A stretch of DNA of 64,000 nt from Flectonema sp. DT1601. Its lineage: Eukaryota. The stretch spans positions 1,054,001 through 1,118,000 of the forward strand of contig OZ025785.1 in the NCBI GenBank assembly GCA_964019425.1, read 5' to 3'. The notes under the pieces were generated by a model. That model ran no database searches and was not told where the DNA came from. It saw only the letters and a program-made list of their open reading frames with translations. Shown here in pieces: positions 15,725-64,000 of the stretch. The position numbers were made by a program, and so were the translations under genes. Each line of letters starts with the position of its first letter. Within the stretch, counting starts at the first letter, position 1.

Positions 15725-15757
<33 letters not shown>

Positions 15758-17678: not shown

Positions 17679-17710
<32 letters not shown>

Positions 17711-17950
17711 CTCTGCCTCTCTCTTAATTCTGTTCGTTTCTTTGAAACGAAAATTCATTTGAATATTATTCCTTGGTCAGCAACCATCATTGTCGCCCTT
17801 TGGGCCTGTTAAAAAAAAATAAAAATAAAAGGGTAAAGGGGTCTTTCCTACACAAATAGTTTCAGAACTAACCATTCATTACAAAATCCAAAATGGCTGT
17901 AAACCGTCCAGTTCGATCCTGGGTGAGGGCATTTTTTTTTTTTCCCGATT

Positions 17951-34582: not shown

Positions 34583-36950
34583 ATGGTTAGTGCCGGGTTA
34601 GAAGTTGCAGGAGTAGTCCTGAAGGGAATCGATCTACTCGTTTGGTTGATGACTTTAGGACCTGTTTGGATGGCTTTAGGAAAAGCCAGTGTGAGGAGTG
34701 TCAGAGCTAAGGTAGTTGATACTGCTGATGTTAATGGAGACCTACCACCGTCAAAAGTCTTTAGATGTGTTGAAGCTATTCAGAGAGGTGAATTAGCTAA
34801 AACCCCACTTCCTGGAGTTACAACTTTGTACGAATTTGCGATGCAGGCTATTCAGAAATACGCGAAGAAGAACGCTCTCGGAACTCGTACCTACCTCGGC
34901 TCCAGTGTCATTGAGGGATCAAAATTCCCAACAAAACAATTTGGATCTACCAAGTGGTTGACGTATGAGCAGGTTGGCGAGAAGATGCACAACTTTGGAT
35001 CAGGTCTTAGAGGCCTCGGTATGGAACCACTCCACTTGAAGGAAGGTCAATCATTCGACGATGTCACTGGGCCACACGGAATTCTGATGTACGAGAACAC
35101 CTGCGCCGAGTGGATGATCGCTGCTCTCGGTGCGTCCTCCCAGTCGTTTGTTTTGGGAACCTGCTATGCAACACTCGGTGTTGAAAGTGTTATCACAGCA
35201 GTTCAGGAGGCTGGAATTGTCACCATCGTTTGTAACTACTACGCTGTTAAGGATATTTTAAAGAGAAAGTCTGAAATGCCAACTCTGAAGAACATCATCT
35301 ACACGACTCTTTACGTTGAGCCGAAGGACATTGACCAACACCCTGGCAAAGATGATACCATCACCGTCTTGTCATTTGATGAGGTTTGTCAAAAGGGAGC
35401 TGAGAAGAAGGTGGCACCGTCACCGGGATCTCCACGTGACGTATGTCGTTATCATTTTTCACTTAACAGGATAGTCTAGTCTATTGAAGGTCTATAAAAA
35501 TAAAACTCAATGTGCTTTGTTTGGATGTCAGTCGAAAACAATAAATTGTGTCCGCAGTGCGGTCAAAATAATAATAAAAAAACAGATCTGCATTCTGATG
35601 TACACTTCCGGATCAACCGGAAAGCCAAAGGGAGTCATGGTTCGCAACAGTCAGTTGGTTTGCCTCTTCCAGGCCATCAAGGACAGAGCTGGACTTCGTG
35701 TTGGAGAAACCTTAGTCGGATACTTACCACTCGCTCACATCTTTGAGATGCAAATGGAATTCTACTGCTTTGGATTTGGTGGTGAAATCGGTTACGCTGA
35801 TCCAAAGACTCTCGTAAGTGGACCAGGGAAGTGTATGCCTCACGGTGCCCTCTTAGAATTCAGACCAACCATTCTCGGTGCCGTCCCAAAGGTTTGGGAA
35901 GTGATCAAGTCTGGAGCCGAAGCTAAAATCAAAGCCAGCGGAGCATCGAAGGAGTTTCTTTTTAACACCGCACTGGAGTGGAAGAAGACAGCAGTCACTC
36001 AATTCCGTGGAACACCGGTTTTTGACAAGTTAGTGTTCGCAAAGATTCGTGCAACTCTCGGAGGAAGATTGAGACTCGCTGTTTCTGGTGGTGGTGCGAT
36101 CTCAGCAAATGTTCAGGAATGGATCAGAGCTGTTTTCGGATGTCCATTAGTTCAAGGTTATGGTTTAACTGAGACATGTGCTGGTCTTACTGTTCAGGGT
36201 TTTGATGACATGCGTGTTGGTGTTGTTGGTGCTCCTGTCGAAACCGTTGAGATTATTCTCCACTCTGAGCCTGAATTAACTGACTTTGACTCAAAGCCAT
36301 ACCTCTCCACTGATACCAATCACATGGGAGCACCTTGTAAGGGTCGTGGAGAAGTATGGGTTCGTGGTAACAACGTAACCGACGGTTACTACAAAATGCC
36401 TAAGGAAACTGCTTCCGAATTCGATAAAAACGGATGGTTTCACACTGGTGACATTGGTATCATCACACCAGATGGAACCATTAAGATTGTTGACCGTAAG
36501 AAGAACCTCGTCAAGTTGAAGGGTGGTGAGTACATTGCCCTTGAGAGAATGAACCAAGCATTCAACCAGTGCCAATATGTTGATGTTGATGGTGGTGGTG
36601 TCTGCACTTACGGAGATTCAGAGATGGACAGACCGGTCTGCTTGGTTCAAATGAATGCCGTGAAGGTTGGTGAACTCGCAAAGAGCCTTGGGATCGAAGA
36701 GACTTCACCTGAGAAGCTCTCGAAGAATGAAAAGATCATCGCTGAGGTTACGAAAGCTCTCAATCTGGCGGGAAAGAATACTCAGCCACCACTTTCATCT
36801 CTTGAAGTGTTGGCCTCAGTTGCTTTGTTAACCAAGCCGTGGAGTGCATTAGAAGGAACTCTTACTGCTTCCCTGAAGATAGTTCCGAAGCAGATTCAAA
36901 TGGCTCATGCGGAAGAACTTGCTGCTGTGAAGTCGAAGGGCATTCGTTAA
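34583..36950 (+). CDS. ACSL: Long-chain fatty acyl-CoA synthetase, copy 2 (740 aa; exons 34583-35440, 35586-36950)
   Basis: Same AMP-binding and FACS motifs as copy 1. The intron lies at the same codon position, GTATGT(35441)...AAACAG(35585). Confidence 0.95.
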
Positions 36951-38872: not shown

Positions 38873-41800
38873 ATGTTTTGTTCGAGAGTGCTAAGCGTGA
38901 TGGCGCTGTTGGCTGGAGCTCATGCTGCTGCTGCACCTACGACTTGCAACCCTGCGGGGTTGCGTGGAGAGGGACTGCTTCACCACGATGTGAAGCACCT
39001 AATGCCGGGGACATTTCAAAAGACTGCGGCGATGATCTCATCGAGACAGCAACATGTTGCTTGTGACGGGGACTGCGTCAGAAGCTTCAGGGACACCACC
39101 ACTCACTCACCGCTCAAGTATGTATTTCACTTAGGTGGACTCTTTTTTTCTTTTATTTTTTTGTTCAACTTGTTGCAAAAAAGAAAAAAAGAAATGGGGA
39201 AGGGGAAGGGATTGATAATAACAATAATAACAATATTTAAAAAAACAGCATTCACGTTGACTTTTCACTTTTGGATGATTCAAGATACGCTTGTCAAAAT
39301 ACTGGAGACATAATCCAGTTGGCGCACGACCCTTCTCCGGGAGCCGCAAATGCTTTTGGAGGGGGCGGGTACACGACGAGCAACAACATCGACTACGTGT
39401 GCCCGGATTCATGGGTGATGACGAGCAACAAGAAGCAAAGACTGAAGGACGCGGTGAACAGGGCAGTGACTCGAATCAAAACGGGTCTGATGGCCAAACA
39501 CGTGGTCGAAAACGAAGGAATCATCAAGACGGTCGACGGGAGGGTGAACTGCAACGCTCGGGACGGTGATTCGAACGTTTTCAGCAACCTGTTGATCGCA
39601 GAGAACGGAGTAGCGGCGGACTTCGTGTTGTATGTGACGGCCAACCCGGTGATCGTCTTTGACGGGTCGGGTTCCAGGATTCAAGCCAATGCTGCAGGTT
39701 GGCCGTGCCACTTTGCGAGGGAGAGTTCAAGACCGGTTATCGGTTTGATATCATTCCACCCGGATCAAGTGTCGGATATTGACAGTGAGGTTCAGTACAT
39801 GTCGAGCGTCGCGCTGCACGAGTTGGTTCAGGCGCTGGGATGGACTCCGGAGCTTGCGGTGAACGACAAGTACATCACCAACTGGAACGCTGAGGGAAGA
39901 ACGTTTGACCAACTTCCTATTGACCTCATGGTGACGAAGAGTGATCGTCTTGGAAAGAGGGGTTACCTGAGATCTCGCGAAGTGACCTTTGCCGAATTCT
40001 TCGACGATCCGTCGTGGGTGCAGCCGGCGTTTTCTTCGTGGAGGGAGTCCTACCCGATTGGTACCCCAGCGCAAGTGACGAAGCTGACGACTCCGACGGT
40101 GATCGAGCAGGCGAGGTTGCACTACGGGTGCAGCCCTACGGATGTCGATGGGCTGGAAGTCGAGGACTACACGTTTCGGGCGATGGGGTACGGCCGTGAT
40201 TGGAACGACTTTCCGCAACACTTTTCAGTTCTTTGGGAGAAGCGTATCGCCAACGACGAGGTTATGAACCTTCAGGTGACCTCGAAGGCGGTTCTGTCGA
40301 GGCTGACTCTCGCGATGCTTCAGGACACGGGGTACTACACGGCGGAGTTCTCTGCGGCGGAACCGTTGGCACACGGGAACAACGAGTGCTTTGTGCTGAC
40401 TTCGAACTGTTGGGCTTGGAGTGGTGATTACATTTGCCCGAGATCGGATGGATTGCCGGTGACGAGCCCCACGTTCTGCACTGCCGACCGACGTGGACGT
40501 GGTACCTGCAATGCCGGCGAGTACGTGGTGTACAGCAGGTCTGTTGTGCCTCGGGTCCCTCGTGAGTACCTTGTGGTCAAGGATGCGGTGACTGGAACGA
40601 GATACTTGCCGTACTATGTCCCCAATCTCAGTTCTTATGCAGAGTTTAACGTGATGAGGGAACCGATCGTCAGACTGAACGGAGGATGTGATGAAATCAT
40701 GGACTTCTGTCCGGTGTGGGAACAGGTTTCGGTTGAAGACGACTGCAGCAACCCGACGGGGTGGGCCGGCACTCCCGCGCAGTACACGGCCCCGGGATCG
40801 ACCTCTTCGTGCTTCGTTTCAAATCTTCGGACGTCTACCACGGGGACGCTTTCGGGAAGGTGTCTTCCTCACGTCTGCGAGGCTGCCGAGGCCGGGACGT
40901 TTGAGCTCACCCTGTTCGTGGGGAGGACTCAGGTAAAGTGCAGCACGAAAGGGAAAATACAAGCGGTCAGCTTGGCTGATGGGATTGGTGGGGATATCTA
41001 TTGTCCGGATCCCACTTTGTTCTGTGCAGGAAAGGCAGAGCTCCCTCCGGTGGCGTTGAGGTTAATCGAGGGTACGGGGGAAATAGTTGTCGGGGAGTCG
41101 ACGGAGTTCGTCATCGAGGCAACCGCGATGGGATCCATTTCGGGAGTGAGGAACCAGATTGGAATGTGTGTGGTGTCCGGGGAGATCGACGAGATGTCCA
41201 CGAGGGAAGCGAGCTACCACGGGAAGTGCGAGAGGGTTTCGACGAGTACTTTTACCCACATGGATTGCCCACTGTTGGATGATCCGGTGAGGAGGAGCTC
41301 GGCGCAGCAGTGCCACGCTGCGTGTTGTGCGGATCCGGATTGTGTGATGTGGCAGTGGATCACGTCCAGCGGCGTGTGCAAGCGGGGATCGACTGGACCG
41401 GAGCTGTGCGAGGGTAAGCCGTGGGAAGTAGCTCAAGATGGAGCATACCTCAGGCGGATTACTCAGTTGCCTTCCTCGGGACTTCTCCCTGGGGAGACAT
41501 GCAAGACGACATTCATGACGCGCCTCGGGTTCGAAGCGAAGGGACAGGCGAAGTTCAAGGTGTTTCTGAAGTCCGTGAGCAGCAAGATCGTGTTCTACGG
41601 GATCGGAGAAAACCTCCTCAATGACGTCATCGTGCGGACTGTGTCGGCGAAGGCCGGGCCTCCTTCGAACGTGAGGATCACGTCGCCGCCTGAGGGAACC
41701 GAGATTCTGTCCGGAAGCGGGTTCGATGTCACCGCGATCCTGACGGATGCGTACGGAAACCCTTCGAGGGGCACTGCCGATGGATCTGTTTGCCCGTGGG

Positions 41801-44800
41801 GGGTGAAGACTTCCGAGACGGATGTTGACTTCTTGGGTGACGACCGGGTGGTGATGGACGGGAAGTGCATTGAGCTGTACAGGACGGCGATGACGAAGGC
41901 CGCTGCGAAGGAGAAATGCAGGACGGCTTGGGGAGAAGGGATGGGGACCCTCGCGACAATCACGAGCTTGGAGATGGAACAGATGCTGGTTGGGGCCTCG
42001 GTGGGTTCTTTCTGGACGGGATTGGAGGTGACTGCCTTGACGATGCCGGCGACGACGACGTGGGATTCGGGGGCGGACTCGCAATGGTGGAGGGAGACTT
42101 ACGGAAACCCGAATGGTCAGGATTACGGTGAATGGGGTTACAGGAAGGGTTGCTGCAGCGGAATCTGGGAAGCGGATGTCGACAGGTACGAAACCACCGC
42201 GGCGTTTGATGCGAATCCTCGGATCAAGAGCTGCATTCGATTCAACCCGAGCGTGTACGAGTACTACCCTTACGAAGCGGTTCTTTGCCGTGAGAGCTAT
42301 CCGTTCTTCTGCGAGTTCAGGCCCCGATTGAAGTTGGTTGTGGACGCAGTGAGCGTGGATGCCGAGATAACTGCGCCTGTCGGAGTGTACGCGGGCAGCA
42401 ATGTGAGGTTCAATGGAGTTGTCGCTTTGAGAGCGCCAGTCGGAGACACTGTTGATGACCACGATACCTTCATGATTCAGGTCACCAGCCCGGGAACGAT
42501 CTTGTCGTCGACCGGAGGGCAGGTTATCTTGAAGTGGAAGGTGCCACCTCAGCCAACGCACATCCAGGCTCTGGGCTACGATAGCGGGTCTGCTACGTGG
42601 TTGCCGTCGATCACGGTTCAGGCGGGCGGAACCATCACTGTGACGATCAACCCGACCGATGTCGGGGGGAAGTTCATTTCTTGGAGCAACATTATGTACT
42701 ACGAGGTGAGGGACCTGTCTTCGGGGAACGCGTACGAATTCACAGGATCGTGTCCAAATGGGAGGGTGAAGGACGGATGCCGGGTTGTGATGACGCCGGA
42801 GAGCCATCCGTTCATTACTAAGGTGAAGACGATTGAGGTGGTCGCTTCGTCGGTGAAATTGACTGCCAACCCGGAATCGGTTCTGATCCACATTGTTCCG
42901 GGAACTCCGTGCGGGATCGACGTTGATTGCCCAGCGGCTGCCGAGTACGCATCGGTCATGGATCCAGTTGATTTTAAGATTGTTGATTGCTACGGCAACC
43001 CTGTCTGCGACAGGAGGAGCAACGGGATGCCGATCACCGTTTCAGGTGACGGGCAGCGGGCCCTCGCTTCGGGCTTCGGATCTTCTCCGACGTCTGTTTG
43101 CGGGGCGTTCAGCTCGGAAGGCGACTGCAGAGAGGGAGGATGCCTCTGGGGAACTGCACAGATGGATCCGTTGATCTGCGAGCCGGGAACCTGTTGCTAC
43201 TCTGTCAACGGTCCACGGTTGGTTCCACACCGCGGATCGAGCGATTTCTTGGGAGCGCAGAGGCTGTGTTTCCCCAATGATCGTGCCATCCTGTTCTCTG
43301 GTAGCGAGGCTCCGTACATCAGAACTGCGAGTTGCGCGTACGACCTTGCGGAATTGTCTGACTTCGAAGACATCTTTTACATCAGACCGTCGACTTCGGG
43401 GAAGCTGCACCTCGAGGTCGCTTCGAGTGGTTCAGAAATTGTGAAGCCCAACGAGTACGAAGAGATCGGGGACAAGTGTACCCCTGATTCCAACGGTGTG
43501 ACCGGACTACACGACACCTACACCTGGGACACAGCCGATTTCTGTGACCCAACGGAGTCGTCGTTCGATGCCGCAAGGTGTTTGAAGCCGATGAACGCGG
43601 ATGTTTGCAAAGAGCTTTGCAACCTGTACCCGAGTGCGGGCTGCATTGGAGTGGAGTACTCCGAGGCAGCTGTCGTCGCTGATTCAACAGCAGCATCGTG
43701 TCCCGCGGAGTACCCGATTGCATCTGACGGAAACACCTGTTGCAAGGCTGGTGATTCCTCGGACTGCACGGGATGCCCGGCGGTCGCCGACCAAAATCAG
43801 GAACAGAATTTTCTGTGCACCGTAGGTGGAAACAGCTTCGTTTTCCCCGGCAAACTCACGGATCTGGGACTCGTGTCATACCAGACAGTTGATGATGAAA
43901 GTTGTGCTGATGGTAGGAGAACGGTGCTGAAGTTCACTGATACGGCAGCCCACCACGACAGAATATTAGGTCGGCTTAGTTGTGGGACCTTGGGTGCGAG
44001 TAGTGTCACCCCTGCTAACACGTGTGTTGCACACGCTCGTGTAGAAAGCTTTGGCGAGTATGCTGGATGTCGCATTCAGCAAGCTTCCGTTTCCGAATTT
44101 CGAGTAGTAAATGCTGTTGAAGGATGCCCTGTGTTCTGTGATGCAAGGGGGTACCAATACTGGGGTTTGGTCTGTCCGTTCGTTGATGGGACAGTAGGGT
44201 GCATATGTTCTACACCTGCTGAATTTGATGGATCAGCTGTGACGGATGATGCCGATTGCTGGTCAGCCAGTGGGAACGAGCCTCAGTGCAACGGTGCGAG
44301 CTTGAAAATTGGAACAACAATTTATGGCTCGGGTCGCAGTGAGAGGGCGGCAGCTTTCTACAGGGTAACGCGGTCTGTTGCTGTGTCTACTTCGAGGACT
44401 TGCGCAGACTGGAAATCTGATGCGAAAAGCTGCTCATTGATGTTGAAGGGACCGAGGCCAGCGTCCACCACGACCATTACCAACGGGCCTGTGGTCTACG
44501 GACTAAAAGACGGACACACCGGAAACCTTAACAACTACGAGAACACTTTGACGAAGGCGAGCGCGCCGTCGGAATCGACAGCGGGCGACATGTGCTTCCG
44601 CAGAGGGGTGACGATCAAGGGAACCAAGCCAAGCCTCAGCGTTCAGATATTCGGACCGAAGGATTCGCTCGAGGCAGTTGATGGGGAAAGAGGCAGAGAA
44701 GAACTCTGGACGTGCGAACCCTCCCCGTCGTCGAGTGTGTCGTTGAAGCAGGCAAACGTGGAGGCGAACCGAATCTACGCGATCAAAATCAATGTTCTCG

Positions 44801-47800
44801 AGGAGGTTGATGCGGTTGAGTCAAAGCCTCTGTACACGGTGAGGCTCGGCGAGGAGAACGAAGCCGGACTGTCTTGCGGAGAGGACATGGAGTGCACGGC
44901 GGGACATCCGTGCCCAGCAACATGCAGTGAGTCGATGTTCTCGGGATTGATTGTCCCTGCTGAGAGCGGGAGCTGTGCCGAGTCGACGTTGACGGTGTCG
45001 CTTCGCGCCGACAAGGAATGGACTGATGAGTTTGGCCTGACGATCACGGAGGGGACTTGCGAGGTTGCGATGGGTTGCTCAAAGTTCTCGCTTCAGGCAC
45101 CCGATGAGATTACTTCGGGAAGGACGCTCTGGAACTTCGTGGCGTTCTCGGTGTCGGCTTCGGCGGGACAAAATCTCGGCGACAGGCAAATTGCATGGAG
45201 GCTGGTGGCGATTGACTGCGAAAACAATGTGGTGGAGTCGTGGAGCAGCGTGACCGACACGGAACTGGATGCGGCGAACGGCTACTCGAGTTCGGCAAGC
45301 AGAGACTTCGAGGGTCCTGCGTGGGGATCGGGATACCGTGGAACGTGCTCGTACATCACTTTGAGGATCATTTCAACCAGCCACCCGATCAAGGCTGCGG
45401 AGAAGAGGGTTGTCGTGCTGCCGGGTAATCCGTATGCGGTGGAAATCCTGAAGGATGTCCCGAGCTGCTACGAGGCGTGTGACGGAGATGCGGGTTGCGA
45501 CAACCTCCGATTCTCTGTTGTCCTGAGGACCGAAATCGGTACCAGGTCGCTCACGGATGGGATTGAGTGTACGGCGTCGGCTGAACACCTCGATGAAGGG
45601 AATAACCGTTACGTGTCGTCCGCGTTCTCGCCGTTTCCGAAAATCGTGAAGCAGACTGCTCAGGGAGTGGCGACGTTCTCGACCGGGTACAAGCGGGCGG
45701 GAGATCTAAAGATCGTCGTGAGCTGCGTGTGTGCGACGTGTGCGGGTGACAGGAGGGCTGTTGTGATGCAGAGCATGCAAAGGTTCGTGGAGGTATTCCC
45801 GGCTGCGCCGTCGTCGATCACCTGCAGCGCGCCGACCCGTGTGTTGGCGGTTGACGACATCGATGTATCGGCGTTTCTTTCGGACGAGTACGGAAATGAG
45901 GTTTCCGAGAGGGTGTCTGGAATGGAGCTGTCCCTGAGGAAAACGTCTCCTGGAGAGGGGACTGGGGCCCTGGCTGGGGCGAGGTCGGTGGCCCTGTCGC
46001 CGAACGGTGATGCCGAGTGGATCGTGCAGCACGATAAGACTGTCAACGCGTTGGCGATCGAGATCTCGGTCGCGGCACCGACGCTGAGCTCCCCGTCGGA
46101 ACCGTATTCGTACACCGGGTGCTTCACGACTTCGAACGTGGGGTCTTTGCTCGGAAGCGGTTGCACGAAGAAGAGGGAGTCGGAGAACATGACCCCGGCG
46201 ATGTGCGCAAAGGTGTGCGCAATCTTCCCGACGTTCGTGCTCACCGGGAACGATGTTGGTTCGAGGGCGACGGTCTGCATGTGCTCGATGCAGGAGGCGA
46301 TCACGGGAACGCCGACGGCGGGAGCGAATTGCCAGAGGCACGGATGTCAGGGAGACGTGCTCGGAACGAACAGCAGATGCGGATGCGCTGTGGGAACGGA
46401 TGCGAGGATCGTGGCAGCTTACAGGAGGAACACGAACTACCAGCAGACCGGGATCGCGGCGACGACGTGCGGTTTGATCAGGGTGTACCCGAACAGGCCT
46501 CGGGCGTTGAAGATCACCAAGCAGCCGTGCGAGTGGGTTGGAAACACGCTGGTGGGGAACTACGAAAGGAGGTGCCAGCAGGCGCTGAGCAGCGCGAGGT
46601 GCCCGGATGCGGCTGTGAACCAGCAGATGAGCTACACGGTGGGGGTTTACGATGCCGGTGGGAACTTGGCGGACACGGCTGGCGACTACAGGACGTTCGC
46701 GAATGCGAGATCGGTGAGGGAGTGTTACAAGAGGTTGGTGACGACGACGACGGTCGGGGGCGAGGAAATCGAAACAGACGAGGTTTGCTTCGACGGGTAC
46801 CCGGACGTGGAGGTGTCGCTGGAGCGGATCTCGTACGCGGGAGGACTGTCGATTCAGCCTGAGAAGCACAACCTTCGAAGCGGAAACGTGTTTACATTTA
46901 CCACGACGCAGGTGGACGTGGGATGTGTTGTTTTGTGGGCGACTGCCGACGGGGCGTTGGATAGTTCGGCGGCGACGAACAAGATTTGCTTCCACGCGGG
47001 GCCGATTGCCCGGATCGTAATCGTCGAGTCGCCGGAACAGGTGTTCGCTTTGAGCAAGTTCCCGTTGTCGAAGGCAGTTGTCTACGACAGGAACGACAAT
47101 AAGGTCACCTGGGCGACTTCGTCACTCGGAATCTACCCGTGGGACGACGGTGCGCAGCCGAACGCGGAGGAGTTTTGTCTGGGGAGGGTGACGACGGGGG
47201 AGGGGGAGGTGAGAACCGTTCCCCGCGTGGTGAACGCGCTCATCAATTTGGGGGCGAACCACCCCGGTGCGACTTCGGAAAGCAGGAGGCCGTACAATCC
47301 GAGCACGAAGCTGAGCGGCGGTGAGACGACGTTCGGAGGGTTCGCGTACCAGTCTCTGGAAGACGGTCTGGACACCCCGTGCTTCAGGTTGAGGTTGTCG
47401 TTGGAGAGGGATGGCGGGAATCCGTCGGTGTTGGGATGCCCTGCCGGAACGTCGGGTCGGTTGATCGAAGCGCTCCAGCTGAAGGAAGATGAGTATTCAA
47501 CTGTTGTCGGTCTCTCTGATCGCATTGAAATATTGCCGGCGTCGCTTGCGTTGGTTTCCCCGTCGAGCGACACGGTGACCGTCAAGGCCGGTACTCCGGT
47601 TACTGCGATCATCTTCTGGACTGCTGACACCCAGTGCTTTGCGGATCCGACGTGCCAAACCGACGCGTTCAAGGTTCGGATGGAGTACGTGTCGGGGCCA
47701 ACGAGTTTATCTGACTGCGCGATGTGTGGTTACGAGGTTTCGTCGCCTGATGGCAGGCAGGTTCGGTTCTCGAACATCATTCGCAGGGTCGCGGGTACCT

Positions 47801-50800
47801 ACAAGTTCCGTTTCTGGGGGACGTCGCAGGACGTTCCTTTCGCGGCACCTGTTGACCTGACGATCATAATCCTCGCTGCTGATGCCGATAGCTTGAACAT
47901 CGTGTGCCCTGAGGAAGTGGTTTTCGGGTCCGGGTTGGTTGTCGACGCGGGGACGATGTTCGCGTACCAAGTGGATGTTCGGGATGGGTACGGCAACCCG
48001 GTGAAGACGTGGAGCGAGGACATCTCGTTGCACGCGAGGGTCGCTGGCGGATTTAGGACGTACGCTCCGTGGTACGACTTTGGGCAGCCGATCCACGTGT
48101 CCCAAACGCAGGGGAACACGTACGCCGTTTTCAACGGGCTCTCGATTGAGAAGACCGGAAGGTACGAAATCTACGCGAAGTCGGGGAGGTTGTTTAACGA
48201 CTTGTGCACGGTGACGATTACCGCTGCGGAACCGGAAAACTGTGCCGCGTATTTGACGGACAGCCCGGTAGAAGCGCAGCCGGAGTACGTGAAGGCGGGA
48301 GTGAACATGAGGATCCGGGTTACGTTCCACGATGCGTACGGGAATCTGATTGCGGCGAAGATGAACGGGGAGACGGTGACCGTGGACCTCGCGCAGGGAG
48401 TTACTGGAATGCTCCACGGGACGACGGAGAAAGTGGTGAGCTCTGCGCTGACGTTCTTCGACGTGAACTACCAGGTGGCACCGAAGGAGATCGGGTTCAT
48501 CGCTTCCGCGAGGGAAGGGTCGTTGTCGTGCAGCACCGACGGTTTGCTGATCGTCGCCAACGACCCGGCGACGATTAAGATTATTGAGGTTCGCGAGAGG
48601 GAACCGAGTGCGGAGACTCCACCGAAGGAGCCGTTGCAGCCTATCGAGGGACCGAACAACGATGAGTACCTGTCTCCGTTGACTGCTGGAGAAGACTTCT
48701 GCGTGAAGGTCCACATTGTCGACGAGTTTGGAAACATCGTGGACGAAAGCAATGAGGAGATCAGGAAGTTGTACACGTCGAACGCGGGTACAGGAAACAA
48801 CGGCTCGCCGCCAATCTTCAGTTTCGATCAGGCGAACACGCAACCCTTGTTCACGTTTGGAGGTGATTCTAATTCTGACGGAGGTTTGTTGTCTTTCTTG
48901 GATGACGAGCAGGGGTCCGATGAATGTAACGACAACTTCATCCTCCTTCCGTTCTTTGGCTTCGAACCGCCCCAGGAATGCGGTTCGGGGGTTCCTGTGT
49001 TGGATACCGATGACTTGCCGCTTGATAACAACCCGACTCTCGATGATGGAAACGCTGAAGCGATCGGGGGGGAAACGTCTCCCCAGGAGAGCAACCCCGA
49101 GTACCCGATGAGGCGGGTGACGCTTGCCAGGTCCGGATGTGCGAGGGTTGACGGATGCAAGAGCACCACCGATGAACTTGACGGGACGACGCAGCTGGAC
49201 TCTGTGAACGGAGTGTTCGATATTTGTGGAGTGCAGTACGTCCGGTCCGAGTGCATTTACATCATGGCGTCGTCGGCGGACCTCGGAACCGACGAGTCTC
49301 CAAAGGTTTGCGTGTCGCACGCGGTGTGGGACAACATGCAATGCGTGACGACTACTACGAGAACCGCGCAGGGGAGGGAATTCGGAGGATTCAAGGTGTC
49401 GATGTTCGACGTGCACGGGAACCCTGCGAGGAGCTGTTCGAGGGATTCGGATGACAGGTCATGTGAGGTGACGATCCAGGAAATGGAGGAGAGAACAACA
49501 AACGGGTACACGTGCTGCGGGAAGAAGACGGACCCGAACCTGGCACCGGGAGTTTTGACGGGAGAGGAGCTGACGATCGACGCAGCTGGCGGAAAGGCGG
49601 ACTTCGATGAGTTGGTTTACAGCAGAGGAAGGCCGGCGAGCGATGCCCTCGAGATTGAGGTGGTTGGGGCTGACGGAATCCGTGCGTACTGCGGTCAGGT
49701 TGTAGTCGTGGGAGTCCGTTTGGTGTGTACGGAGTCCCCTCCGGAGGTGGTTGCCGGAGAGGCGTTCGCGGTTGAGGCGAAGATGATGACCTGGAGCGCG
49801 GCTGACGGGGAGTACGTGGACATCAACTGCGTTGGGGAGAACAGGAACACCCTGTGTCCTACAATGGGGAGGCTCAGAGTTGCCCAGAGCACGGGAACGT
49901 TATCCGGAAACTACTTCTTCGTGAGACAGGCTGGGGCGTCCGGGTACTCGAATGCGCACTGCGGTGCGGCGGCAACAAGGGGAGCGTGCGGCGGAATTGC
50001 GGACCCGGCATGTTCGTACGGCGTTCACGTGACGGAGCCGTTCCCTGCGATGAAGAGCGCGCTGAGCTGCTACAACCCGACGCCGGACTTCAGCGGGTTC
50101 CAGGTGTCTCCAAACACGTTGGGGCAGCTGACGTTCTCGTCGCTGAGGTACTACACGGCGACGACGTTCAGGCCGGAGGCAACCCCGAAGCACGCGAGCG
50201 TTTCGACGAGGCAGTGGGCTGCGGCAGTGGCGGCTGACAGCGAGGCCCCGGGGGTGTGCGATCCGGTGAAGGTGGTGGCGAACAAGCCTTACGAGCTGTG
50301 CATGGGTGGGACCACGAGTTCGTTTCAGGCAATCCTGCACAAGGGGTACTCGGAGACCCCGAGCTCGGTCAGGTACGGAGCGAAGTTTGAGAGGTGCAAG
50401 TTGCTTTGCGACGCGAGCAACACCTGCAAGAAATGGGCGTTCGTGCCGGATGAGAAGGTGTGCAAGCTGTACACTGCAGGGGACATCGTGCCGACCGCCG
50501 ACGAAGAGGGAACGGTGTCGGGATGCAAGGAATCGGACGACCCGGCGTGCAAGTGCACGTGTGCTGGGGCGGAGGGTGGTTGCCCGGCATGCTTCACGGT
50601 GAAGCCTGGAAGCTGCTCCAAGTGCGCGGGTCCGAACTGCGGTAGTTGCCCGGCGAAGACTGTCGTTGCGGGAAGACCTTTGACGATGGGGATGAGGATT
50701 CACGATGAGTGGGGCAATGAGATCTCTGAGACGATTACGAAGGAAGTGGTTGTGTCGTGCAAGGTGACGCGGGGACCGCTTCGCAACCCCGAGTACCGCC

Positions 50801-53800: not shown

Positions 53801-56800
53801 CGAGGGAGATCATCATCTACGGAGGACAGGAGAGGTACGAACAGGCGGTCGGCCATACAGTTTTCACTGAGCAGTCGCGCGTCACGAGGTCGTTCAACAT
53901 CGACACGAAGCAGTGGACGAACTTGAACCCGGGTGGGAAGTCGGGTTGTGTCGCGCAGAGCGGTTACGAGTACTTCGCGGCGAACCCAGAAAACGCGCCG
54001 GTGGTGTCGAACCGATGCAGTTTGAGGGGTGACGAGAACGCGTGTTCGTTGGCGGACGCGGGGGAATGCGCGTCGCGGACGACGAAGGGGGATTGCCTTC
54101 CTGCGGTTGGTAGCGACAGTTTCAAATGCGCGTGGCTTCCAGGCGAGGCGGGGGCCGGGGAATGCGTGGTGCCCTGCCGATGGGTGGACGCTTCGTTCGG
54201 AGGAGACAAACCCGGAAAGAGGTTCTACTCTGGAAATGCCAGGGGCCACGTCATCACCGTTGGTGGTCAAAAGAGAATGTACATGTTCGGTGGGATGACC
54301 AAGCTTTCGCCTGAGCAGCAGATGTACTCGGAGCACTTCTTGCAACCGGATGCGTATGCTGTATTTCCCGATACGGTGACGTCGTCGGACAGCGACATGT
54401 GGTACCTGGAGATGCCGAGCAGCGGTGCGAAGGAGGCGTTCGACTTGAGGCCGTACGAGAAGAACTGCCGGGCGGTAGCGGGAACTGAGACATCGTGCGC
54501 TCACTTGTGGTGGAACAAGGTGCAGTGCGAAGGAACTGCGGGGTGCAGGTGGTTCGCCGGTTCGGAGTTCGTCTCCGGGGATCAGGTTCAGTGCTCGGCT
54601 GCGGACGGGCCGGACTGCGTTGTCCTTCACGGAACAACGTCGTTCAGGATGCCTTCGTCGTCTGTTGAATTCGATAACATCATCGTGTCATCGACGAGGA
54701 AGTTGTTGGAGGATTCGATGGCTTACTGCGCGACTGTAGTCGAGGGTATGAACTGTCAGCAGCACGCAACTGAAGAACAATGCACGGGAGGGGAGGGAGG
54801 AGACTGCAGGTGGGTGGTTGAGGCGCCTACCAGGAGGATGTCGATCCAGATGTTCGTGTCGGTGAAGTGCGGGAAGAAGGATCCTCGCTGCCCGCTGTCG
54901 CCGGTCGACTTGCCGTCAAGGGTTGAATGTGCTCGTTGCAAGCTGACGGTGAACAAGCAACCTGGTGGGGAACACTTGGTGATGGGAGCTGGGAAGCCGA
55001 TCTTCACGTCGAACTTGCCGGGTCACAGTTTGAGTCCGATTACCGTTGATGTCACTGGTTCGGATGGGTCTCCGGTCACCAACCTGGACAACTCGGATGA
55101 CATTCTGAGGGACACGTCGATCACCCTTTGGCTGTCGAGAACGAGGTTCTCGTCGAACAGGGAGAGGACGTTGGAGTCGTCTACGAAGGCGATCGTCGGA
55201 ACGAGGTCGACCTTCGAGCAGAGTGACTTGTCGTGGAGCGTGGACTCGGCGCCTTCGGTGATTTGGTTGAAGGCGGACCACGCAGAGGGTGTTTGCGAGT
55301 CGAGCCACGCATGGCCGGTGAACGTTGTGAACGACCACGCTTGTGGATGGAAAGTCAGGAGCGTGAAGCAGGAGGTGAAGGCCGGGGAGGCGTTCGACGT
55401 GGACGTGACTCTGTTGGACAAGTTTGGAAACGTGGCGTACTGCGACTACCAGAGAGGGCACTGGAGGGAACCGGCTTCGGGACCTGCAAAGGTGCTGAGG
55501 ACGTTGCCAGACAGCAACGAAGACGCGTGCGCGCAGGCATGCCGCGAGAGCAGGCGCTGCAGCTCGTGGAACTTTGCCGCGGAGAGCGTGACCCTCGAGG
55601 GAGCGAATGGCGGGACCCGTATGATTCCGAAGGGAACGTGTCTTTTGAACAGGGGGCTGACAGTCATCAAGAGCCGGGGATGGGCTGAGGTGGAGGGGGC
55701 GGTGACCGGTGTTCCGGGAGGGATCTCGTGCAGAAACGGGGAGTACCTTGCGGTTGAAGCGGTGGCGGCCGACGGGGAAGCCGTTGAGGGGACGATGTTC
55801 TCGGCGACGCACGGGCTCGGGAAGCCGCGTTGTGTCGTGATGGGGGTCGAAGAGGCGGTTGCGACCCTCGTGTTCGGTGGAGACGCGAAGTCGTGCGGGA
55901 AGTGCTGCCGCGAGAACGGGGCCGGCAAGGTGGTCGAGTACCGCGAGGAAGGACACGCGACCAAGTGCGGTTGCACCGACGGGACGTTCCCTTTGGCGGG
56001 GACTTCTTCGTGCTCGGGGTTGTCTGGAGAGGGAAAGAGGTACGTGTCCGTGAGGGACATCGTCGAGGGGTTCCAGGAGGACGTGGTTTCGCACAGGGCG
56101 ACTTTCAAGAAGCTGTGGCACAACAAGGCCGAGCAGATCAAGTTGGTGTTCCACCTGCGTTCACACTTGGAAGGCGCGCCGAGCGCGGGGTGCGCTGTGA
56201 ACCCGTCGGGAACGTTGAAGGTGATTCCAAACGATCCTCACCACCTCAACCTCGAGAGGATTCCGGATGTCGTGCAGGCGTCGTGCGGAGTCGACAACCC
56301 GTTTACTGTTGAACTCGAGATTGTCGATTTCTGGAACAACAGGGTTCCTGTTTCCGACCACGTGGTCGAGATTTCGGTTGAGGTCGGCAGCGAGAGGCTC
56401 ATGGGCACGACGGTTACGAGGTCGGTGAACGGTCTCGTGACCTTCACGCTCAAGTACCAGAAGGCCGAATACTTGACCCTGTACGTGACGGATCGAAACA
56501 TCGCTTCGGGGCAACAGCAGCAGCAACAGCTGAGCATTGCTAGCGGAGCCGGAAGCAGCGAGGCTGGCAGCTGCGCGGGAAGCTGCTCAGGAAACAGCTG
56601 CTTGAACCCGACGGACAGCATGTGCTGCCTGGAGCTTCCGCCGATCAGGATCCTCAGCGGGCCTGCATACAAGTTGGTTACGATTTCCCAGCCGCCGTCG
56701 GTCATTCAGAGTTACGGAAAGGGGGATTGCGATGGGTTCGGCTACGAAGTTCAGTTGCAGGATTCGTGCGGCAACCCGATCGACTCGGAGCACGCTGGCG

Positions 56801-59800
56801 AGAGTGCGGCGGCCAAGTACGAGGGGACCGAGGTACAGGTGGTGGTGGAAACCGGTGATGCGACTCGGTACGTCGCGAGCAACTGTGACAGCGAAGTGTG
56901 CATCGGCAGGTTGGTCCCGCTGCGTCCGTTTGCGACTTTGACTTGTTCCATTGGCGGATCAAGCCGCTGTTCTTGCAGTGACTTGATCAACGAGGCGACC
57001 GTGGACATCGAAAAGGGATACGTTTCCGGGGAGGATAACCTCGTTTGCCAGGCTTGCGAGGCTGCCGGATTCGGGAGCGCCTGGGATGTGAGAAGGGGAT
57101 TGCTGACAATCTCGTCGACGGAAGCGAGGTCGCTGGACTCGTTCACGCAGATGATGAAGAGTGTCGTGTTCACGACGTCTTCGCTGGAGAGCGAAGAGCG
57201 CACCATCACCTGGAGTTACGGCCACGCGTTCTACTCGACATACACGAATCACTTCTACCATTACTACCCAAAGGCGTCCTGTCAGGATGGATACCCGGTG
57301 GGAGAGCGTGTCAACAACCGGTGCCACTGGAGGGATGCGCAGACGGCGTGTGAAAGCAAAACGGTTCTGGGGATGCGTGGGTACCTGATGACGGCGACGG
57401 ACGCCACGGAAGACGAGATCGGAAAATCGAAGATCCAGGGGAGCGGATGGATGGGAGCATCGGACAGGGCGGAGGAAGGGACGTGGGGATGGGTGACGGG
57501 TCCGGAAGGTCAGCGGGGAGGCTGCGTCTACGGAGAGGGGAAGACCGGTTGCTTGGAAAGTGAGATTGGTTTGGTGTTTGGAAGAGGCCAGGCCCCGGGG
57601 TTCAATGCCGTGATCGATCCCGCGACCGGAAACCCGTTCTACAACGCGTACTCGGAGACTGAGCCGAACGATTACGGAGGTGGTGAAGATTACCTGCACT
57701 ACTGGCCATCTGGAGCATGGAACGACTACGCGGCCGAGCAGCGAAATATCGATGGTTTCATCTGCGAGTGGGGAGGGCTCGATGAACCGTGCGCGAGCAT
57801 CGGAGAACTGTCGGGGACTTTGGTGATCAGGGCAGGAAGCGGAAGCCCTGCTGGAAAACACACTATTTTGAACCCGCCGCTCATCCTGACCGGGGGAACT
57901 TGCACCATCGAGGGAGCGCACTCTCAGGTGGACCCTGACCTGCGGTTGACGGTTCGCCTTCCGGAGTACGCGGCGATCAGGCCGGCGAAACCGAACCCGA
58001 TCGAGGTTGAACACTGCACCCCTCGCAAGCTGAAGATCACTGAGCCGAAGGGATGCAATGATCCGAAACTGCCCCTGCCGGTGATTGGAGTTCGCACTCA
58101 GATGCCTGACATGACGGTTGTTATTTTGGATCGCGATGGAAACGTTTGCGACACGACGGAGGTGCTGTCGGCGACCGACGTCGGGTGCCTGTCGACGCTC
58201 GAGGCGCCGCCGGGTGCCCGTTTCATGCGTACGAAGTCGAAGGACCAATGCATGCGTGAGTGTGCTGGTCTGGGATTCCAATACTTCGGGATGACCGAGG
58301 TGGAATGCAGATGCCACATAGCGTCGGACCTCGAAGGGTCTGAGGAAGCAGAGGGCGTGCAGTGCACATCGCAGTGCTACTCGGAAGCGCAGAACATTTG
58401 CGGTGAGGATCCGTTGTCGATCGCGATGTTCGAGATCCGGACGACTTACGGAAGGCTCGAGTACTCGACGTACACGTCGAGGGAGAACCCGAGGAGGAAG
58501 CTGGACCCTCGGTTCTCGGCGCTTTCGATCGCGGACAAGAGCTTCGCGGGAGGCGGAGGAGAGTTGTTCGGGTCGCTGGTGAAGGATGCGTTCGAGGGGG
58601 TGGTGGTGTTCGACGACACGGTTTGGCTGCCGGACCAGGTGAGCCGCGCGGCGTGTCTTGCGAACTCGAGAGCGGAGCCGTGCTCTGGGCAGCTGACGCT
58701 CGAAGTGGAGGATCAGTTCGGGGAGCTTGAGAAGGACACCTGCGTGGTGCGGTCGCAGAACGACAAGGTGGTGTGTCCGTCGGCGACGACGTTGGCTACC
58801 AGGGTCGGCGAGGAATTCGACATCTGGGCCTGGGTTGACACGAGCTTCGAAGGAATGGACGTGACGACGATCGAGTTGACGATCTTCGACGACAGCAACG
58901 AGCTTCAGATTGTTGAGGGCCCGCACCCTGAACAGGGGAATGGTGTCGTGAGCAGCTGGGTGAAGTCGGGATCGAGGTACGTGCTGACGGTGACGAGCAG
59001 CGGGGTCCTCAGGGAAGAAGACAGGGTTTGGTTCCCGAGACTCTTCTACTCGACGGTCATCCCGTCGAACATGGAGAAGGTTGACCGGACGATCAGGATT
59101 CAGTCGGACTTTGCGGAGGAGTGTCGGGTGAAGGTTCAGGTGTCGGCCGGTCTGGTTTCGAAGTGCTCGAGAAGGCTGCCGTCTTCGACGTGCTACAGGG
59201 CATGCGACTATTTTGGGTTCGAGTACTTTGCGTTGGATACGTACGGCAACCAGGTTAAGGGGGACAAGGGACGTTGCGTGTCGACGTCGACGACGCCTGG
59301 GTCGTGCCCAGGGAGGGGAACGTTCCCAGAGGGACCGCGGGGAATGGGGACTCTGAAGAGTATGTTCACCCAGGAAGCCGGACAGATCGGTGTCGGTGTC
59401 ACGACCCGTCGCAGGAACGGAGTGTTGGAGCTGTTCCTCGAGGACACCCTGCGGTATTGGAAGAGTACTTCGATTCCGATCGAGTGGAAGAACGGTGAGG
59501 CCCCGGACTACGGGAGGATCGAATCGGGCGAGCTTTGTGTTGTGTTGGACAAGGTGACCAGGTTCGCAGGTTCAGCCAGCTTGGAGACCTTCTCTTGGAC
59601 GACTGCCGCGTGCTCGGGGGTCGAGAGGTTCTTCTGCAGCGCGACGCGGGTCAATCGTAACCAGTGCAGCAACTGGATCGCGCCTCCCTACGGCCGCGTG
59701 GCGGTGTCGCAGCCGCCTCCGGTATTCACTTCGAACGGTGGGAGGGACGTTCTTTATGGGAGAACATTTTCTTACGGCAACCGCGGAAAATTCTCTTTCA

Positions 59801-62800
59801 AAGTGTACTACTTACGGGCTGTCAGGGCCCGCGAGTTGACGGCAACCTTGATCGCAACGACGGGCGAAGAGGTCGACTGTGGGTTCGGGTTGAAGACCTT
59901 CGAGATCGACATCTCCCCTGCGTTGCCGCGATACCTGAGGGCGACGATCTCGGCGAATTCGCCGATTTCGAGGGACTCGAATAATTGGCCAGTTGTTTGC
60001 ATTTCGTGTTCTTCGGTTGATTCTTTCGACGTCAGGGTGTCGTCGTGGGACTCGTATGGCAACCTCAACAGTTGGGATTGCGAGTCTGAGGACGCGTGGT
60101 CGTCGAAGATAGGCAGGGTGACGATCTCGGCTGAAGGGGTGGTTGATGGGAAGCTTGTGAAGCCGGATTCCACGGGACTCGTGGGAATGCCGGGGACGGT
60201 GGCGGAGGCAAGGGACGGGAAGCTGATGCGGGGAGGAGTGGCAACCTTCAGCGGGCTGCGATTCAACCGACCAGGGTTCGTCAAGTTCGTGGCCGAGGTG
60301 AATGAATGGACTGTGCCGACTTGGAAGCCGACGTTTCCGGTTGTGTATGCGCACTTCGAGGCGTGCCTGCCGAGGAAGCTGGTTCTGATCGAGGGAGAGC
60401 CTTCGCCGGTGGCAGGAAAGGAATTCGTGATGGGCTATGAACTCCGTGACCAGTACGACAACAGGATCACGGCTGATCCGTTCGATGTGTTGGAGAAGGC
60501 GAAGAGGTTGAGCGGCCAGGGCAGAGTTGTGAAGTTCGGGTTCACCAACGGCTATGCGAACGAGGAGCACAGCGTCGAGGAAATCGATTCCTACTACAGC
60601 CGTCACGGAAGGTACGCGCACGCGGTTACCCACTACAAGGTGTTGTACGGGACTTCTATCGTTGCGGTGAACACGAAGCTGGCTTTGGGAGTTGAGAACG
60701 AAGTCTTGATCGACCTGACGGGGACGCCGTTGGAGACGTGTTCGGCGGCGACGATCGAGAGGGATGACGAGTTGAACCTGAAACACAACGAACCGATCTC
60801 GCTTTCGGGATTGGTGCACGACGAAACGGTGCACTACGACGAGCCGTTCGCGTACGGTGTGAGCGCGTACCAGTACGACAGATGGAACAACGAGGGTATC
60901 GAATGGGAAAGCCGTTACGGAGGGATCGAGTGCAAGCTGGAGTTGTCGACGGCGACGGTGTCGTTGTCGGTTGACGGCGTCGACACGGAGGTGACGTACA
61001 CGCTGCCGTTCGTTCCGGTGGCGACGAATGAGCAAGGTGCGGGGGGAGCCCAGCTTGCGAGGGGAGTGCAGCAGCTGGATGCGATGCAGGACGCTCTGCG
61101 GGCTTGGTTCAACGAGGACGCGACGAGGACGGGGCTCACCAACACGGTGCCGTTTTCCCGGGCGGGATCAGATACGAAGGTTCCGTACTTCGTGCCGAGT
61201 CTGTTGATGGGGCAGAGGATGGGGGACGACAGGAGGCCGGTGGCGTACAGGAGTTCGATGGTTTGGTTCAGGCAGACGTTCTCGAGGAGGGCGACGGGGA
61301 AGTTCAAGCTGCTGACGACGTGCGTCCGTCTGGACCGAAGCGCGTTTCGAGTGGACGATCCGCAGGCCCCGCAGCGGTTCAGCAAGGAAACCGCGTACAT
61401 TACGGTTGAGAGGAACGCCATCGAGCTTGTCCGCGAGCCGCCGAGGAACCCGTGCAGGCGTGCGGGAGACGCGGCGTACTTCATCGCGAAGTTGACCCTC
61501 GCGAACGGCGACGACCTCGTGAGCTTCCCGACGGGAGTCCGTCTGATGTACACGATGCTTTCGGTGGACTCGAGGACGACTTCGGGGCCGTTCGCTTGCG
61601 ACGACGCGGTGGTCGTAAAGCGGGAGACTTCGCACGCGGACTTGTCCCAGGAATCGCCTCACACGGTTTGGGTGAGGTGTTCGATCAACAGCGACAACTC
61701 GGAGTCGAACTTGCCGGCGGGGCTGAACTTGAACGGTATGAAGGATCGCAGGCAGTCGTGGGTCGTGGACCTGCCTGGGCGTCCGACGATCATGCAGGAC
61801 ACGTTGGGCGGGGAGGTGGCTTCCGGGTACTCTTCGGTGGAAGCGGAGTTCATCGAGTTCATCCACGCGTGCACCGACAAGATGGTGAGCGACAGTCGCC
61901 CGCCGAGGGAGGTTGTGGTGAACACGCCGTTCTCGCTGAAGGTGACTTTGAAAGACAGGTTCGAGAACAACGGCGGTGTGTACACGATCACGGTGAACGC
62001 GTACAACGTCAACCCGGAGGGTTTCGTGGGTGATTTGAACACGCATTTGGTGAGCCAGTTCACGAGCAGCGCCCAGAAGGACCAGTCGCTCGGTGCGAAC
62101 GACTTCGCGACCGGGGGGGGAGTGGCGTCGTTGTCTGGGTTGTACGTCGACAACGAGTTCCTGAGGGACGCGTCCGGCGAGGAAGGATTCATTTGGGTGG
62201 TCGCTTTCGTGAAGAAGAACTCCGGGAAGGGATGCGATGCCGGGTGCGACCCTCACTTGGAGGGATCGCTTTCGTGCAAAAATGGTGCGGTCCCCCACCC
62301 AATATTTGGATGCGTCTCCTACAACTTCGGGCGCATTCTTGTGACGCCTGACAAGTTCGAGAGCTGCCACTTCGTGAAGTTCCCTGGTCCTGACGGCATG
62401 ATTGCGGGGTCGAGGTTCGCTGAAGATTTTGAAGTCGTCTTGGCCGACCAGCACGGTCTGAGGATCCACGAGTGGGGGCACACTGACGAGGCGAAGATGA
62501 CTGTGGTCGGAAAAGACAGCAAGACGCCTGGGTACGGACTGAATTTGTTCATGGATGCTGTTGGCCTTTCGCCCATCACTTCTCCGAAGGAAACGGAAGC
62601 GGGCGGACTTTTTGTAGTTGAAATGGTCGTGGGTGGGTTGGCGGAAAACGGTGGACAATTCTCGAACTTGAATGGGCAAACCGAAGACGAATGGTGGGTT
62701 CTTCGGGTGGTGTATGTGAACACCGAGCCAAGGGGTCTTTTAGAGATTTTCAGTAGCGACAAGGATACATTCAGCATCTACGTTCCGTTGCCTGAGGACC

Positions 62801-64000
62801 TTTGGGTCACTCTTACTGTGTCGGTTGGCACTTCGGAGGTGGCCTTGACTGTGGTGAGCCTCGATGGCAGCAAGACAGCGACTGCTACTGCGGCGTTCGA
62901 GTCCAGAATCCCGACGGATGGCATCCAGACGTTGAGACTTTATGAAATGGGTTTCTCGTCGCTTCGCGTGACTTCCGGAAGCACAGCTTACCTGGGAGTC
63001 ACCGTTCTGAGCGATGGCGACATTGAATCGAGCGGTGGGTATTACAACGTCGTTGGACCTGTGAACAGGGATCTCCTGGTGATCGAAGGTTCAGTGGCTG
63101 CGGTGACGCAGTCGGTTGGGTTGCCGGGGGACTGCTTCCCGGATTCGGCGGTGACCGGAAGCGACATCCTGACGTACACGACACCTGATTCTTGCATCAA
63201 GAGCCGAAAGGATTACAAGGTAACATGGATGAACAACTGGTACACGAAGACCGGAAAGGTGACTGTGAAGTTCTCGCTGAGGGACGTGACGTGTCAGACG
63301 TCGTTCGACGTGAGGGCCGGTCCGGCGCACCGCCTTCGATGCAAGGACGTGCAGGAGGAGGTCTTCACAAGAGAGCCTTGGCATTCGAGCATCGATGTTG
63401 TCGATGAACACGATAACCTGGTTGAGTGCATCGCTGACTTCCCGGCAACCAACACCGAGGAGGGCGTGTTCGGGGCGAGGTCTTACGACTGCACAGCGTA
63501 CACGGCAACGGTTGCCGTGCACGACGACGTGAGCGGGGATTCCCTGTACCAGGCATCGCAGACGGAGTCGCCGTTCACGAGCATTCCGCAATCGGAGGCC
63601 GCGTTCAGCCCGAGGTACGCCCAGCAGCCGAAGTCTGCGCTCCCGACGGGAGGGGTGAACGGCGTGGCGGACGGGTCGACTTTGGCCGAGTTCGGGGTTG
63701 ACTTCACGCAGGCTACTCCGGTGTCGACTGAGGGATGGGACGCGCGCTCTCCGACGGGAAGCTGGGCGGTGGGTTCGGAGTCATCGGCGGAGGGAGGGAG
63801 GTACTTCTTCGCATCCTCGGAAACCGAGAGGGCGCTGAACATGAGGTACCTCACGGACGGGAGGTTCGAAAACTTCGACAACCACGGAAACAGGTGTGCC
63901 CGGTCGAGGGATCCACGGGCGGTGTGCAGGTACGGTTCGGACCCGAGTGTGGACGGTTGCTGCAGGCTGCACACGCCTGGGAGAATAGTTCCTGGACGGA
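38873..64000 (+). CDS. Giant secreted/surface multidomain protein (>8,300 aa, runs off the 3' end): signal peptide, degenerate leishmanolysin/GP63 (M8) domain, ~25 Ig-like repeats with inserted lectin/WSC/PAN/Kelch modules
   Basis: Exon 1 is 38873-39117 (MFCSRVLSVMALLAGAHA...), followed by intron GTATGT(39118)...AAACAG(39248). Frame 1 from 39250 showed no stop in the stretches I translated. The ORF track lists no terminated + strand frame-1 ORF between 39250 and 64000. Confidence 0.93.
39250..41025 (+). other. Peptidase M8 (leishmanolysin/GP63)-like domain
   Basis: Motifs ADFVLYVTANP, RPVIGLI, ALHELVQALG, ARLHYGC, GLEVED, WEKRIANDEVM, SRLTLAMLQDTGYY, GG...MDFCP and GDIYCP appear in GP63 order. 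Confidence 0.9.
41860..42318 (+). other. C-type lectin-like domain 1
   Basis: GKCIELY...AKEKC...GTLATITS...FWTGL...C...C...PFFCE; no EPN/QPD or WND motif. Confidence 0.8.
46105..46425 (+). other. WSC-like carbohydrate-binding domain (others at ~44056-44367 and ~58180-58437)
   Basis: YSYTGCF...MTPAMCAKVC...VCMC...C...C...RCG...AAY. The other copies show C-x3-C-x3-G(Y/F)QY(W/F)G...CxC. Confidence 0.75.
50390..50530 (+). other. PAN/apple-like module (others at ~41300-41385, 43600-44600 split, ~51540-51730, ~55520-55650)
   Basis: CKLLCDASNTCKKWAF...CKLY...VSG follows the C-x3-C-x5-C-x2-W...C-x-L pattern. Confidence 0.7.
52885..54415 (+). other. Kelch-type beta-propeller, six blades
   Basis: Blades read RLGHT...IMYGG, AGHA...LVVFGG...DVWMYD...W, FYVVGG, LYVTTG, HHTA...IIYGG and GHVI...MYMFGG...DMWYL. 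Confidence 0.88.
57247..57777 (+). other. C-type lectin domain 2 with EPN and WND motifs (bacterial-style)
   Basis: NHFY...WRDAQTAC...GYLMTAT...GWMGASDRAEEGTWGWVTGPEG...EPN(57661)...GEDY...WND(57718)...GFICEWGG. Confidence 0.9.

Follow-up and report, generated by a model that had tools for sequence, protein, structure and literature searches.

Cargo domains inserted within the Ig-like repeats of a giant, putatively secreted protein of Flectonema sp. DT1601

We analyzed a stretch of 64,000 nucleotides of the genome of Flectonema sp. DT1601 (contig OZ025785.1, positions 1,054,001 to 1,118,000; the window in what follows), in which a giant open reading frame (ORF) on the forward strand (39271..63999) runs without a stop codon for 8,243 amino acids (aa) and continues past the window end. 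Most of this ORF was found to be a scaffold of 32 Ig-like repeats (R01–R32; 41653..63999, + strand), and 10 of the 32 repeats carried domain-sized inserts, 12 altogether and from 97 to 623 aa in length. The comparison with homologous proteins supported that these cargo domains were inserted inside the repeats and not fused to them end to end, and we regard such a split-domain architecture as highly probable. With regard to function, we propose, with a probability of about 0.6, a secreted filament with an Ig backbone and sideways-projecting cargo, which would constitute a multivalent, likely glycan-binding array.

Ig-like repeats and their inserts

An earlier note on this DNA, made from the sequence alone, had placed a DxxGN motif at 22 positions, all of which proved to be in frame with the ORF and to coincide with the Asp of a D-x-x-G/S/N/D/E-N motif; the motif had the strict form in 16 cases. 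Strict DxxGN occurred 17 times in the ORF, compared with a mean of 1.7 and a maximum of 6 in 1,000 shuffles, and 14 times when the preceding hydrophobic strand pattern was also required (mean 0.55, maximum 3; 1,000 shuffles). While an initial profile built from the window's own repeats mainly re-found its training set, a profile trained solely on the homologue P0001 scored window repeats at up to 49 bits, with shuffled and reversed controls reaching 4.5. The repeats themselves were thus confirmed, yet their number, previously put at about 25, rose to 32 because several of them lack the motif. Boundaries were set by hand from pairwise and multiple alignments and are accurate to a few residues; so delimited, intact repeats comprised 111–148 aa (R32 is cut by the window end) and linkers were absent, the last strand of each repeat leading directly into the next one.

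The likeness of the repeats to those of Filamin, Big_1, Invasin_D3, Ig_SMCHD1 and GEX2_N was indicated by weak Pfam matches (Invasin_D3, E 2.7e-4; Big_1, E 0.05), by sub-threshold Atlas leads (0.83–0.88) in agreement with them, and by structural matches. At an E value of 0.1, any Pfam match was obtained in 2 of 12 scaffold stretches, and the curated cut-offs of Big_1, Invasin_D3 and Filamin were not reached, the best score being 21.8 bits vs 33 required for Invasin_D3. R12 harbored an acidic, low-complexity loop of 121 aa after its DxxGN motif (48751-49113), both the length (83–124 aa) and the sequence of which varied among homologues.

The 12 inserts, all encoded on the forward strand, were distributed over four socket positions, with strands named according to the predicted Ig fold type. 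Four of them were located directly after DxxGN: a C-type-lectin-like insert in R01 (41767..42324; recognized by Atlas and by profile, and found in 3/3 spanning homologues), a PAN module in R20 (55441..55731; Pfam E 3.6e-7; 7/7 homologues), a WSC domain in R23 (58156..58452; Pfam E 2e-7; 6/6 spanning homologues) and a 141-aa insert in R25 (59263..59685; 6/6 homologues). The last of these resembled a lectin by eye, an assignment that was rejected given that Pfam returned nothing and the lectin profile did not match. Five inserts were positioned after the next (third) strand, namely the 623-aa insert of R03 (43057..44925), a 592-aa Kelch propeller region in R18 (52807..54582; Pfam E 1e-21; 6/6 spanning homologues), a second, WSC-like insert in R20 (55771..56067; profile probability 55%; 7/7 homologues), a 333-aa cassette in R22 (56851..57849) and a 239-aa insert in R31 without a Pfam match (62506..63222; 272–313 aa in 5/5 spanning homologues). 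Two more preceded the last strand: a WSC-like insert in R06 (46075..46470), which matched the WSC domain of R23 with a profile probability of 94% and was common to 3/3 homologues, and a 301-aa insert in R15 (50932..51834), for which a sub-threshold FYVE match was obtained and no convincing family. R15 also carried the single insert after the first strand, a PAN module (50299..50640; Pfam E 8e-4). Nine of the 12 inserts were longer than what remained of their host repeat, one of them marginally so.

This distribution ruled out a lone socket after DxxGN, shortly after which the earlier note had repeatedly placed the start of cargo. The four cargos that it named were real, on the basis of Pfam for Kelch, PAN and WSC and of Atlas plus a weak profile match for the lectin, and the lectin, PAN and WSC domains did start 7, 8 and 9 residues past the Asp, respectively; however, Kelch started 22 residues past it, after a further strand and hence in a different loop.

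Two of the inserts were themselves nested. The R22 cassette is a beta-rich unit that encloses a C-type lectin domain (Lectin_C, E 8e-6, 27 bits vs a cut-off of 22.6) with EPN (57661) and WND (57718), which we take to be its calcium and sugar motifs; it thereby combined the profile match and the motifs expected of a calcium-dependent C-type lectin. The R03 insert, in turn, was longer in the window than in 3/3 homologues (623 vs 256–272 aa) because a further insert of ~390 aa, with a weakly WSC-like part (43453-44631), splits the shared cargo. The third-position GC content (GC3) of this window-only segment was 0.56, compared with 0.74 for the whole gene (overall GC, 56–62%), and no match to it was found among the fetched proteins, which is consistent with a recent arrival.

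Seven collinear homologues (P0001, P0002, P0003, P0004, P0005, P0014 and P0022) were available for comparison; an additional short match, P0012, entered only the first structure prediction (R20). P0003 and P0004 are from Diplonema ambulator and P0005 is from Flectonema neradi, and since these three are diplonemid transcript assemblies, the family is expressed; by this kinship, the window most likely derives from a diplonemid as well. The homologues were 22–41% identical and most inserts were kept across them. Once the inserts were removed, the split repeats of the window left 83–150 aa in two or three pieces, compared with 111–148 aa for intact repeats, with the piece ahead of DxxGN-type inserts comprising 38–47 aa.

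Empty counterparts of filled sockets provided the most direct evidence for insertion. The R22 socket held 333 aa in the window vs 4–13 aa in 7/7 homologues; the PAN socket of R15 held 108–118 aa in the window and three homologues vs 2 aa in three others; and the second R15 socket held 301–340 aa in the window and three homologues vs 8–20 aa in three others. The converse was observed in R28, with 174–309 aa in three homologues vs 39 in the window. In homologues with an empty socket, both pieces joined as one repeat of 125–145 aa. Mapping of the R22 cassette flanks without an alignment placed them 24–44 aa apart in four of the seven homologues. Furthermore, a profile built from ten intact repeats (62 rows, 131 positions) placed the pre-cargo pieces at approximately positions 11–63 and most post-cargo pieces at approximately 60–125, that is, on the first and second half of a repeat. 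The branches in the tree of the eight scaffold proteins were long, and an order of gain and loss was assigned to the window-only inserts alone.

Among the seven homologues, unrelated cargo was never found in one and the same socket. The modules, described earlier as exchangeable, were gained and lost in evolution, but no swap was seen. With respect to the R28 socket, the extra domain of the homologues was accompanied by Cys-rich and Pro/Thr-rich segments (P0002, 1610-1824; P0003, 4261-4567; P0004, 4261-4432), which the window (60937-61053) does not have.

Predicted structures of two interrupted repeats

AlphaFold2 models were obtained for R20 (9-row alignment; mean pLDDT 60.9, pTM 0.41) and R23 (7-row alignment; mean pLDDT 52.5, pTM 0.43). 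In the R20 model, the PAN module was confident, with a Z-score of 9.9 to apple/PAN domains, and the WSC-like insert was moderate (Z 6.9 to Wsc1). In a structural search with this model, 28 of the 50 matches listed were Ig-type and extended over model residues ~6–288, across both inserts, with 80–94 residues aligned; as an alignment of this length over that range requires both the preceding and the following piece of the repeat, it argues for a single split domain. The filamin domain of TRIM45 was matched with a Z-score of 6.7 (rmsd 3.2, 93 residues aligned). Similarly, the R23 model gave a Z-score of 12.6 for WSC, and 42 of the 50 matches listed were Ig-type over residues ~23–273 (87–122 residues), including a GH2 C-terminal Ig domain (Z 7.5, rmsd 2.5, 93 aligned).

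Both low-confidence models thus suggest that one filamin/Big-like Ig sandwich closes around its cargo, PAN plus WSC in R20 and WSC in R23; cargo lying between complete Ig domains was seen in neither of them. The earlier proposals that the repeats are Ig-like and that the cargo arrived by insertion were borne out to this extent, the former by predicted fold and the latter by the models together with the empty sockets, whereas the rigidity of the stalk and the binding role of its modules, which the note also proposed, stand as putative. The models support the topology and name no family, given that the Ig-type matches were tied among filamin, invasin, InvD, FdeC, S-layer and GH2 domains. A Foldseek search with the R23 model retrieved the WSC fold only (best E 1.1e-3) and did not match the split scaffold.

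Proposed function and alternative readings

Upstream of the giant ORF, a likely first exon whose hydrophobic start resembles a signal peptide (38873..39117, + strand) was followed by a likely GT-AG intron of 131 nucleotides (39118..39248, + strand; GT at 39118, AG ending at 39248), whose predicted splicing, with phases 2+1, would bring the exon in frame with the ORF. This signal-like exon, the 308 cysteines encoded by the ORF and its N-glycan sequon count point to a secretory route. Specifically, 3 sequons were observed in 39271-63999 vs 47 expected; sequons were likewise strongly depleted in P0002, P0005 and P0014, whereas no depletion was found in P0003 and P0022.

The N-terminal head (39271..41028, + strand) matched the leishmanolysin (peptidase M8) profile PF01457 with an E value of 2.9e-28 and 99 bits, above the cut-off of 21. 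However, its HExxH motif reads HELVQ (39817-39831) and the third zinc-binding His is replaced by Leu (40231), in contrast to 3/3 homologues spanning the head (P0001, P0014, P0022), which kept all three His residues. Because two of the three are replaced, the head in the window is likely a pseudo-protease and is predicted to be inactive. Neither this head nor the nesting of inserts had been mentioned in the earlier note. It is followed by a probable extra repeat, delimited by eye, that holds a further PAN module (41041..41652, + strand; PAN_4, E 3.5e-4 at aa 673–699).

As to the source of the cargo, relatives of the R22 cassette made up most of 150 listed matches. In a rapidly built 45-row tree (the window and the first 44 matches covering >230 residues, with the partial P0015 omitted), the cassette fell into a group of 17 rows with an SH-aLRT support of 100, apart from the 28 others. 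This group included vWA proteins with a membrane anchor from Diplonema papillatum and from Artemidia motanka, and several of its members carry the cassette directly after a signal-like sequence. This grouping is most simply read as recruitment of the cassette from a different gene for a surface protein, and the direction is suggested by the absence of the cassette from all seven scaffold homologues. A direct bacterial origin was rejected, since the cassette groups with diplonemid copies. Separately, P0006, P0007, P0008 and P0010 represent a second family of 4,200–4,900 aa with vWA domains and several lectin cassettes; P0006 and P0007 are diplonemid and possess a C-terminal membrane helix.

Taken as a mechanism, the ~32 filamin/Big-type Ig sandwiches would form the backbone of a filament exceeding 8,200 residues; ten of the repeats are opened up by entire cargo domains, which would project sideways. 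Each split repeat is predicted to close into one seven-stranded sandwich once its cargo folds, so that neither an empty nor a filled socket would break the backbone. New cargo would come from genes for other surface proteins and be inserted in frame at the DNA level, given that the relatives of the R22 cassette include modules of diplonemid vWA membrane proteins and that none of the modules is flanked by an intron. The head, presumably once a protease, would survive here as an inactive domain, and the array would most likely grip glycans on food cells or surfaces.

Several observations weigh against this reading. On the side of the architecture, only 4 of 9 post-cargo pieces (R12, R20, R23, R25) scored clearly above shuffles with the profile of intact repeats, and those of R01, R03, R18, R22 and R31 were within shuffle noise; the alignment-free mapping of flanks was unsuccessful for the three most distant homologues; the scaffold strands were of low confidence in both models (scaffold blocks, 24–65); and the Ig Z-scores of 5–7.5 may reflect just a common arrangement. 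On the side of function, several inserts matched no family, and a hydropathy scan of five homologues revealed no clear C-terminal membrane helix, the nearest candidate being one weak segment close to the P0022 terminus. In addition, the R01 insert had an Atlas score of 0.94, with 29/30 matches in Lectin_C clusters, and a weak profile match (probability 33%), but it lacked both a Pfam match and the EPN and WND motifs of a calcium-dependent C-type lectin, and a PDB sequence search returned nothing meaningful. It may thus resemble a C-type lectin in fold alone.

Some of these points would also fit a structural coat or matrix filament of the same split architecture, with inserts that cross-link proteins or the filament itself instead of foreign glycans. 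PAN and Kelch domains often bind proteins; the R01 lectin is devoid of EPN and WND; a clear membrane anchor is missing from the homologues scanned; and the retention of most inserts at 22–41% homologue identity would suit fixed partners. Nevertheless, the most recent insert is a lectin whose sugar motifs are intact, and each of the folds concerned (WSC, PAN and C-type lectin) includes proteins that bind carbohydrates, among them a parasite lectin and glyoxal-oxidase WSC domains in the structural matches, and hence we hold the coat to be unlikely. Less probable still is a targeted digestive enzyme, in which a long carrier would bear the leishmanolysin head and bring it to glycoprotein substrates by means of the inserts, and the window copy would be a derived, inactive one. 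The intact HExxH and third His in every homologue with an N-terminus speak in its favor, but spending 8,000 residues on a single protease domain would be poor economy, and the window protein, despite its lost zinc ligands, has kept a 24.7-kb frame open and gained cargo, which implies that the scaffold is maintained without catalysis. Finally, that cargo lies between complete Ig domains and only looks inserted owing to misplaced boundaries is very improbable, and is largely refuted for R15, R20, R22 and R23: the weak detection of post-cargo pieces in 5 of 9 repeats and the low scaffold confidence would agree with it, while pre-cargo pieces of 38–65 aa are too short for a sandwich, empty-socket homologues join the pieces into one repeat, and in both models a single Ig domain encloses the cargo.

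Returning to the proposed glycan-binding array, the protein is a candidate for the attachment or feeding machinery of diplonemids, which are abundant marine protists with a little-known biology, as stated in the D. papillatum genome paper (PMC10161547). A more far-reaching idea, which we put forward tentatively, is that diplonemids independently evolved a split-domain display filament in which a single type of Ig repeat provides four sockets, with cargo of up to ~6 times the size of its host, three-level nesting and ongoing recruitment of modules from genes for other surface proteins, where the cargo would track the food or attachment sites of each species.

Related systems and further features of the window

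The closest parallel was found in the RTX adhesins of Gram-negative bacteria. According to two reports (PMC12077191; bioRxiv 10.1101/2025.09.30.679566), adhesins such as AhLap and FrhA possess tandem Ig-like extenders, some of which are split in order to project ligand-binding domains off axis; their inserts, which follow the first strand or precede the last ones, can be nested and are swapped among relatives. The giant protein shares the split Ig-like domains that project inserts, as judged from the comparison with homologues and from the low-confidence models. It differs in being eukaryotic and in having a putative signal peptide and putative disulfides where the adhesins rely on type I secretion and an N-terminal retention module, the N-terminus instead consisting of the signal-like exon and the M8 head; it may also lack their C-terminal RTX beta-roll. 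Moreover, its 12 inserts are spread over four loops in 10 of 32 repeats along the whole chain and not confined to a distal ligand-binding region. No RTX family was detected in Pfam scans of P0002, P0004 and P0005, of which only P0002 may reach the C-terminus, and no sequence kinship between the two systems came to light. By analogy, the protein may work like the ligand-binding region of an RTX adhesin; it is not a member of that family.

Non-contiguous Ig-like sequence around a nested binding domain is also described for the pilus tip adhesins RrgA and GBS104 (PMC7893114). In contrast to the giant protein, these consist of four domains with one nested tip head, sortase anchoring and isopeptide bonds, and have no long array of sockets. 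CnaA and CnaB domains are reported to tolerate loop insertions (PMC12617251). Leishmanolysin (GP63) itself shares the PF01457 domain, which in the giant protein has lost two zinc ligands and is followed by more than 7,600 residues.

The design is therefore already published for bacterial adhesins, and the novelty lies in its occurrence in a eukaryote, in how many sockets there are and in the size of the inserts. We found no description of this eukaryotic family in the open papers searched, and the terms 'leishmanolysin', 'GP63' and 'adhesion' did not occur in the main text of the D. papillatum genome paper (PMC10161547). When the M8 region was compared by a word-based method with proteins of 4,533–14,426 aa, 0 of 1,892 candidates scored, although three such homologues exist; this search was hence insensitive. 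According to a 2026 survey of 48,551 insertion events, 20% of multidomain proteins contain insertions, the insert is the smaller partner in 77% of events, and a minority involve nesting (PMC13114784). The large inserts reported here, 9 of 12 exceeding the host remainder, would make the repeat well suited to studying how a domain folds around large insertions, and to display engineering. Likewise, the split-domain rule used for spotting bacterial ligand-binding domains would extend to a eukaryote, and would flag the inserts without a family as candidates.

Elsewhere in the window, two tandem AMP-binding (acyl-CoA synthetase-like) genes (30467-32745 and 34583-36950) were identical at 2,060 of 2,339 aligned bases, each being apparently split by one intron. 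A 714-aa ORF (26891-29035) showed a weak match to a Tra1 HEAT ring (E 1.2e-7). Lastly, ~16 kb at 2001-18000 had a GC content of 22–32%, compared with 56–62% in the giant gene, and contained no ORF of at least 150 aa.

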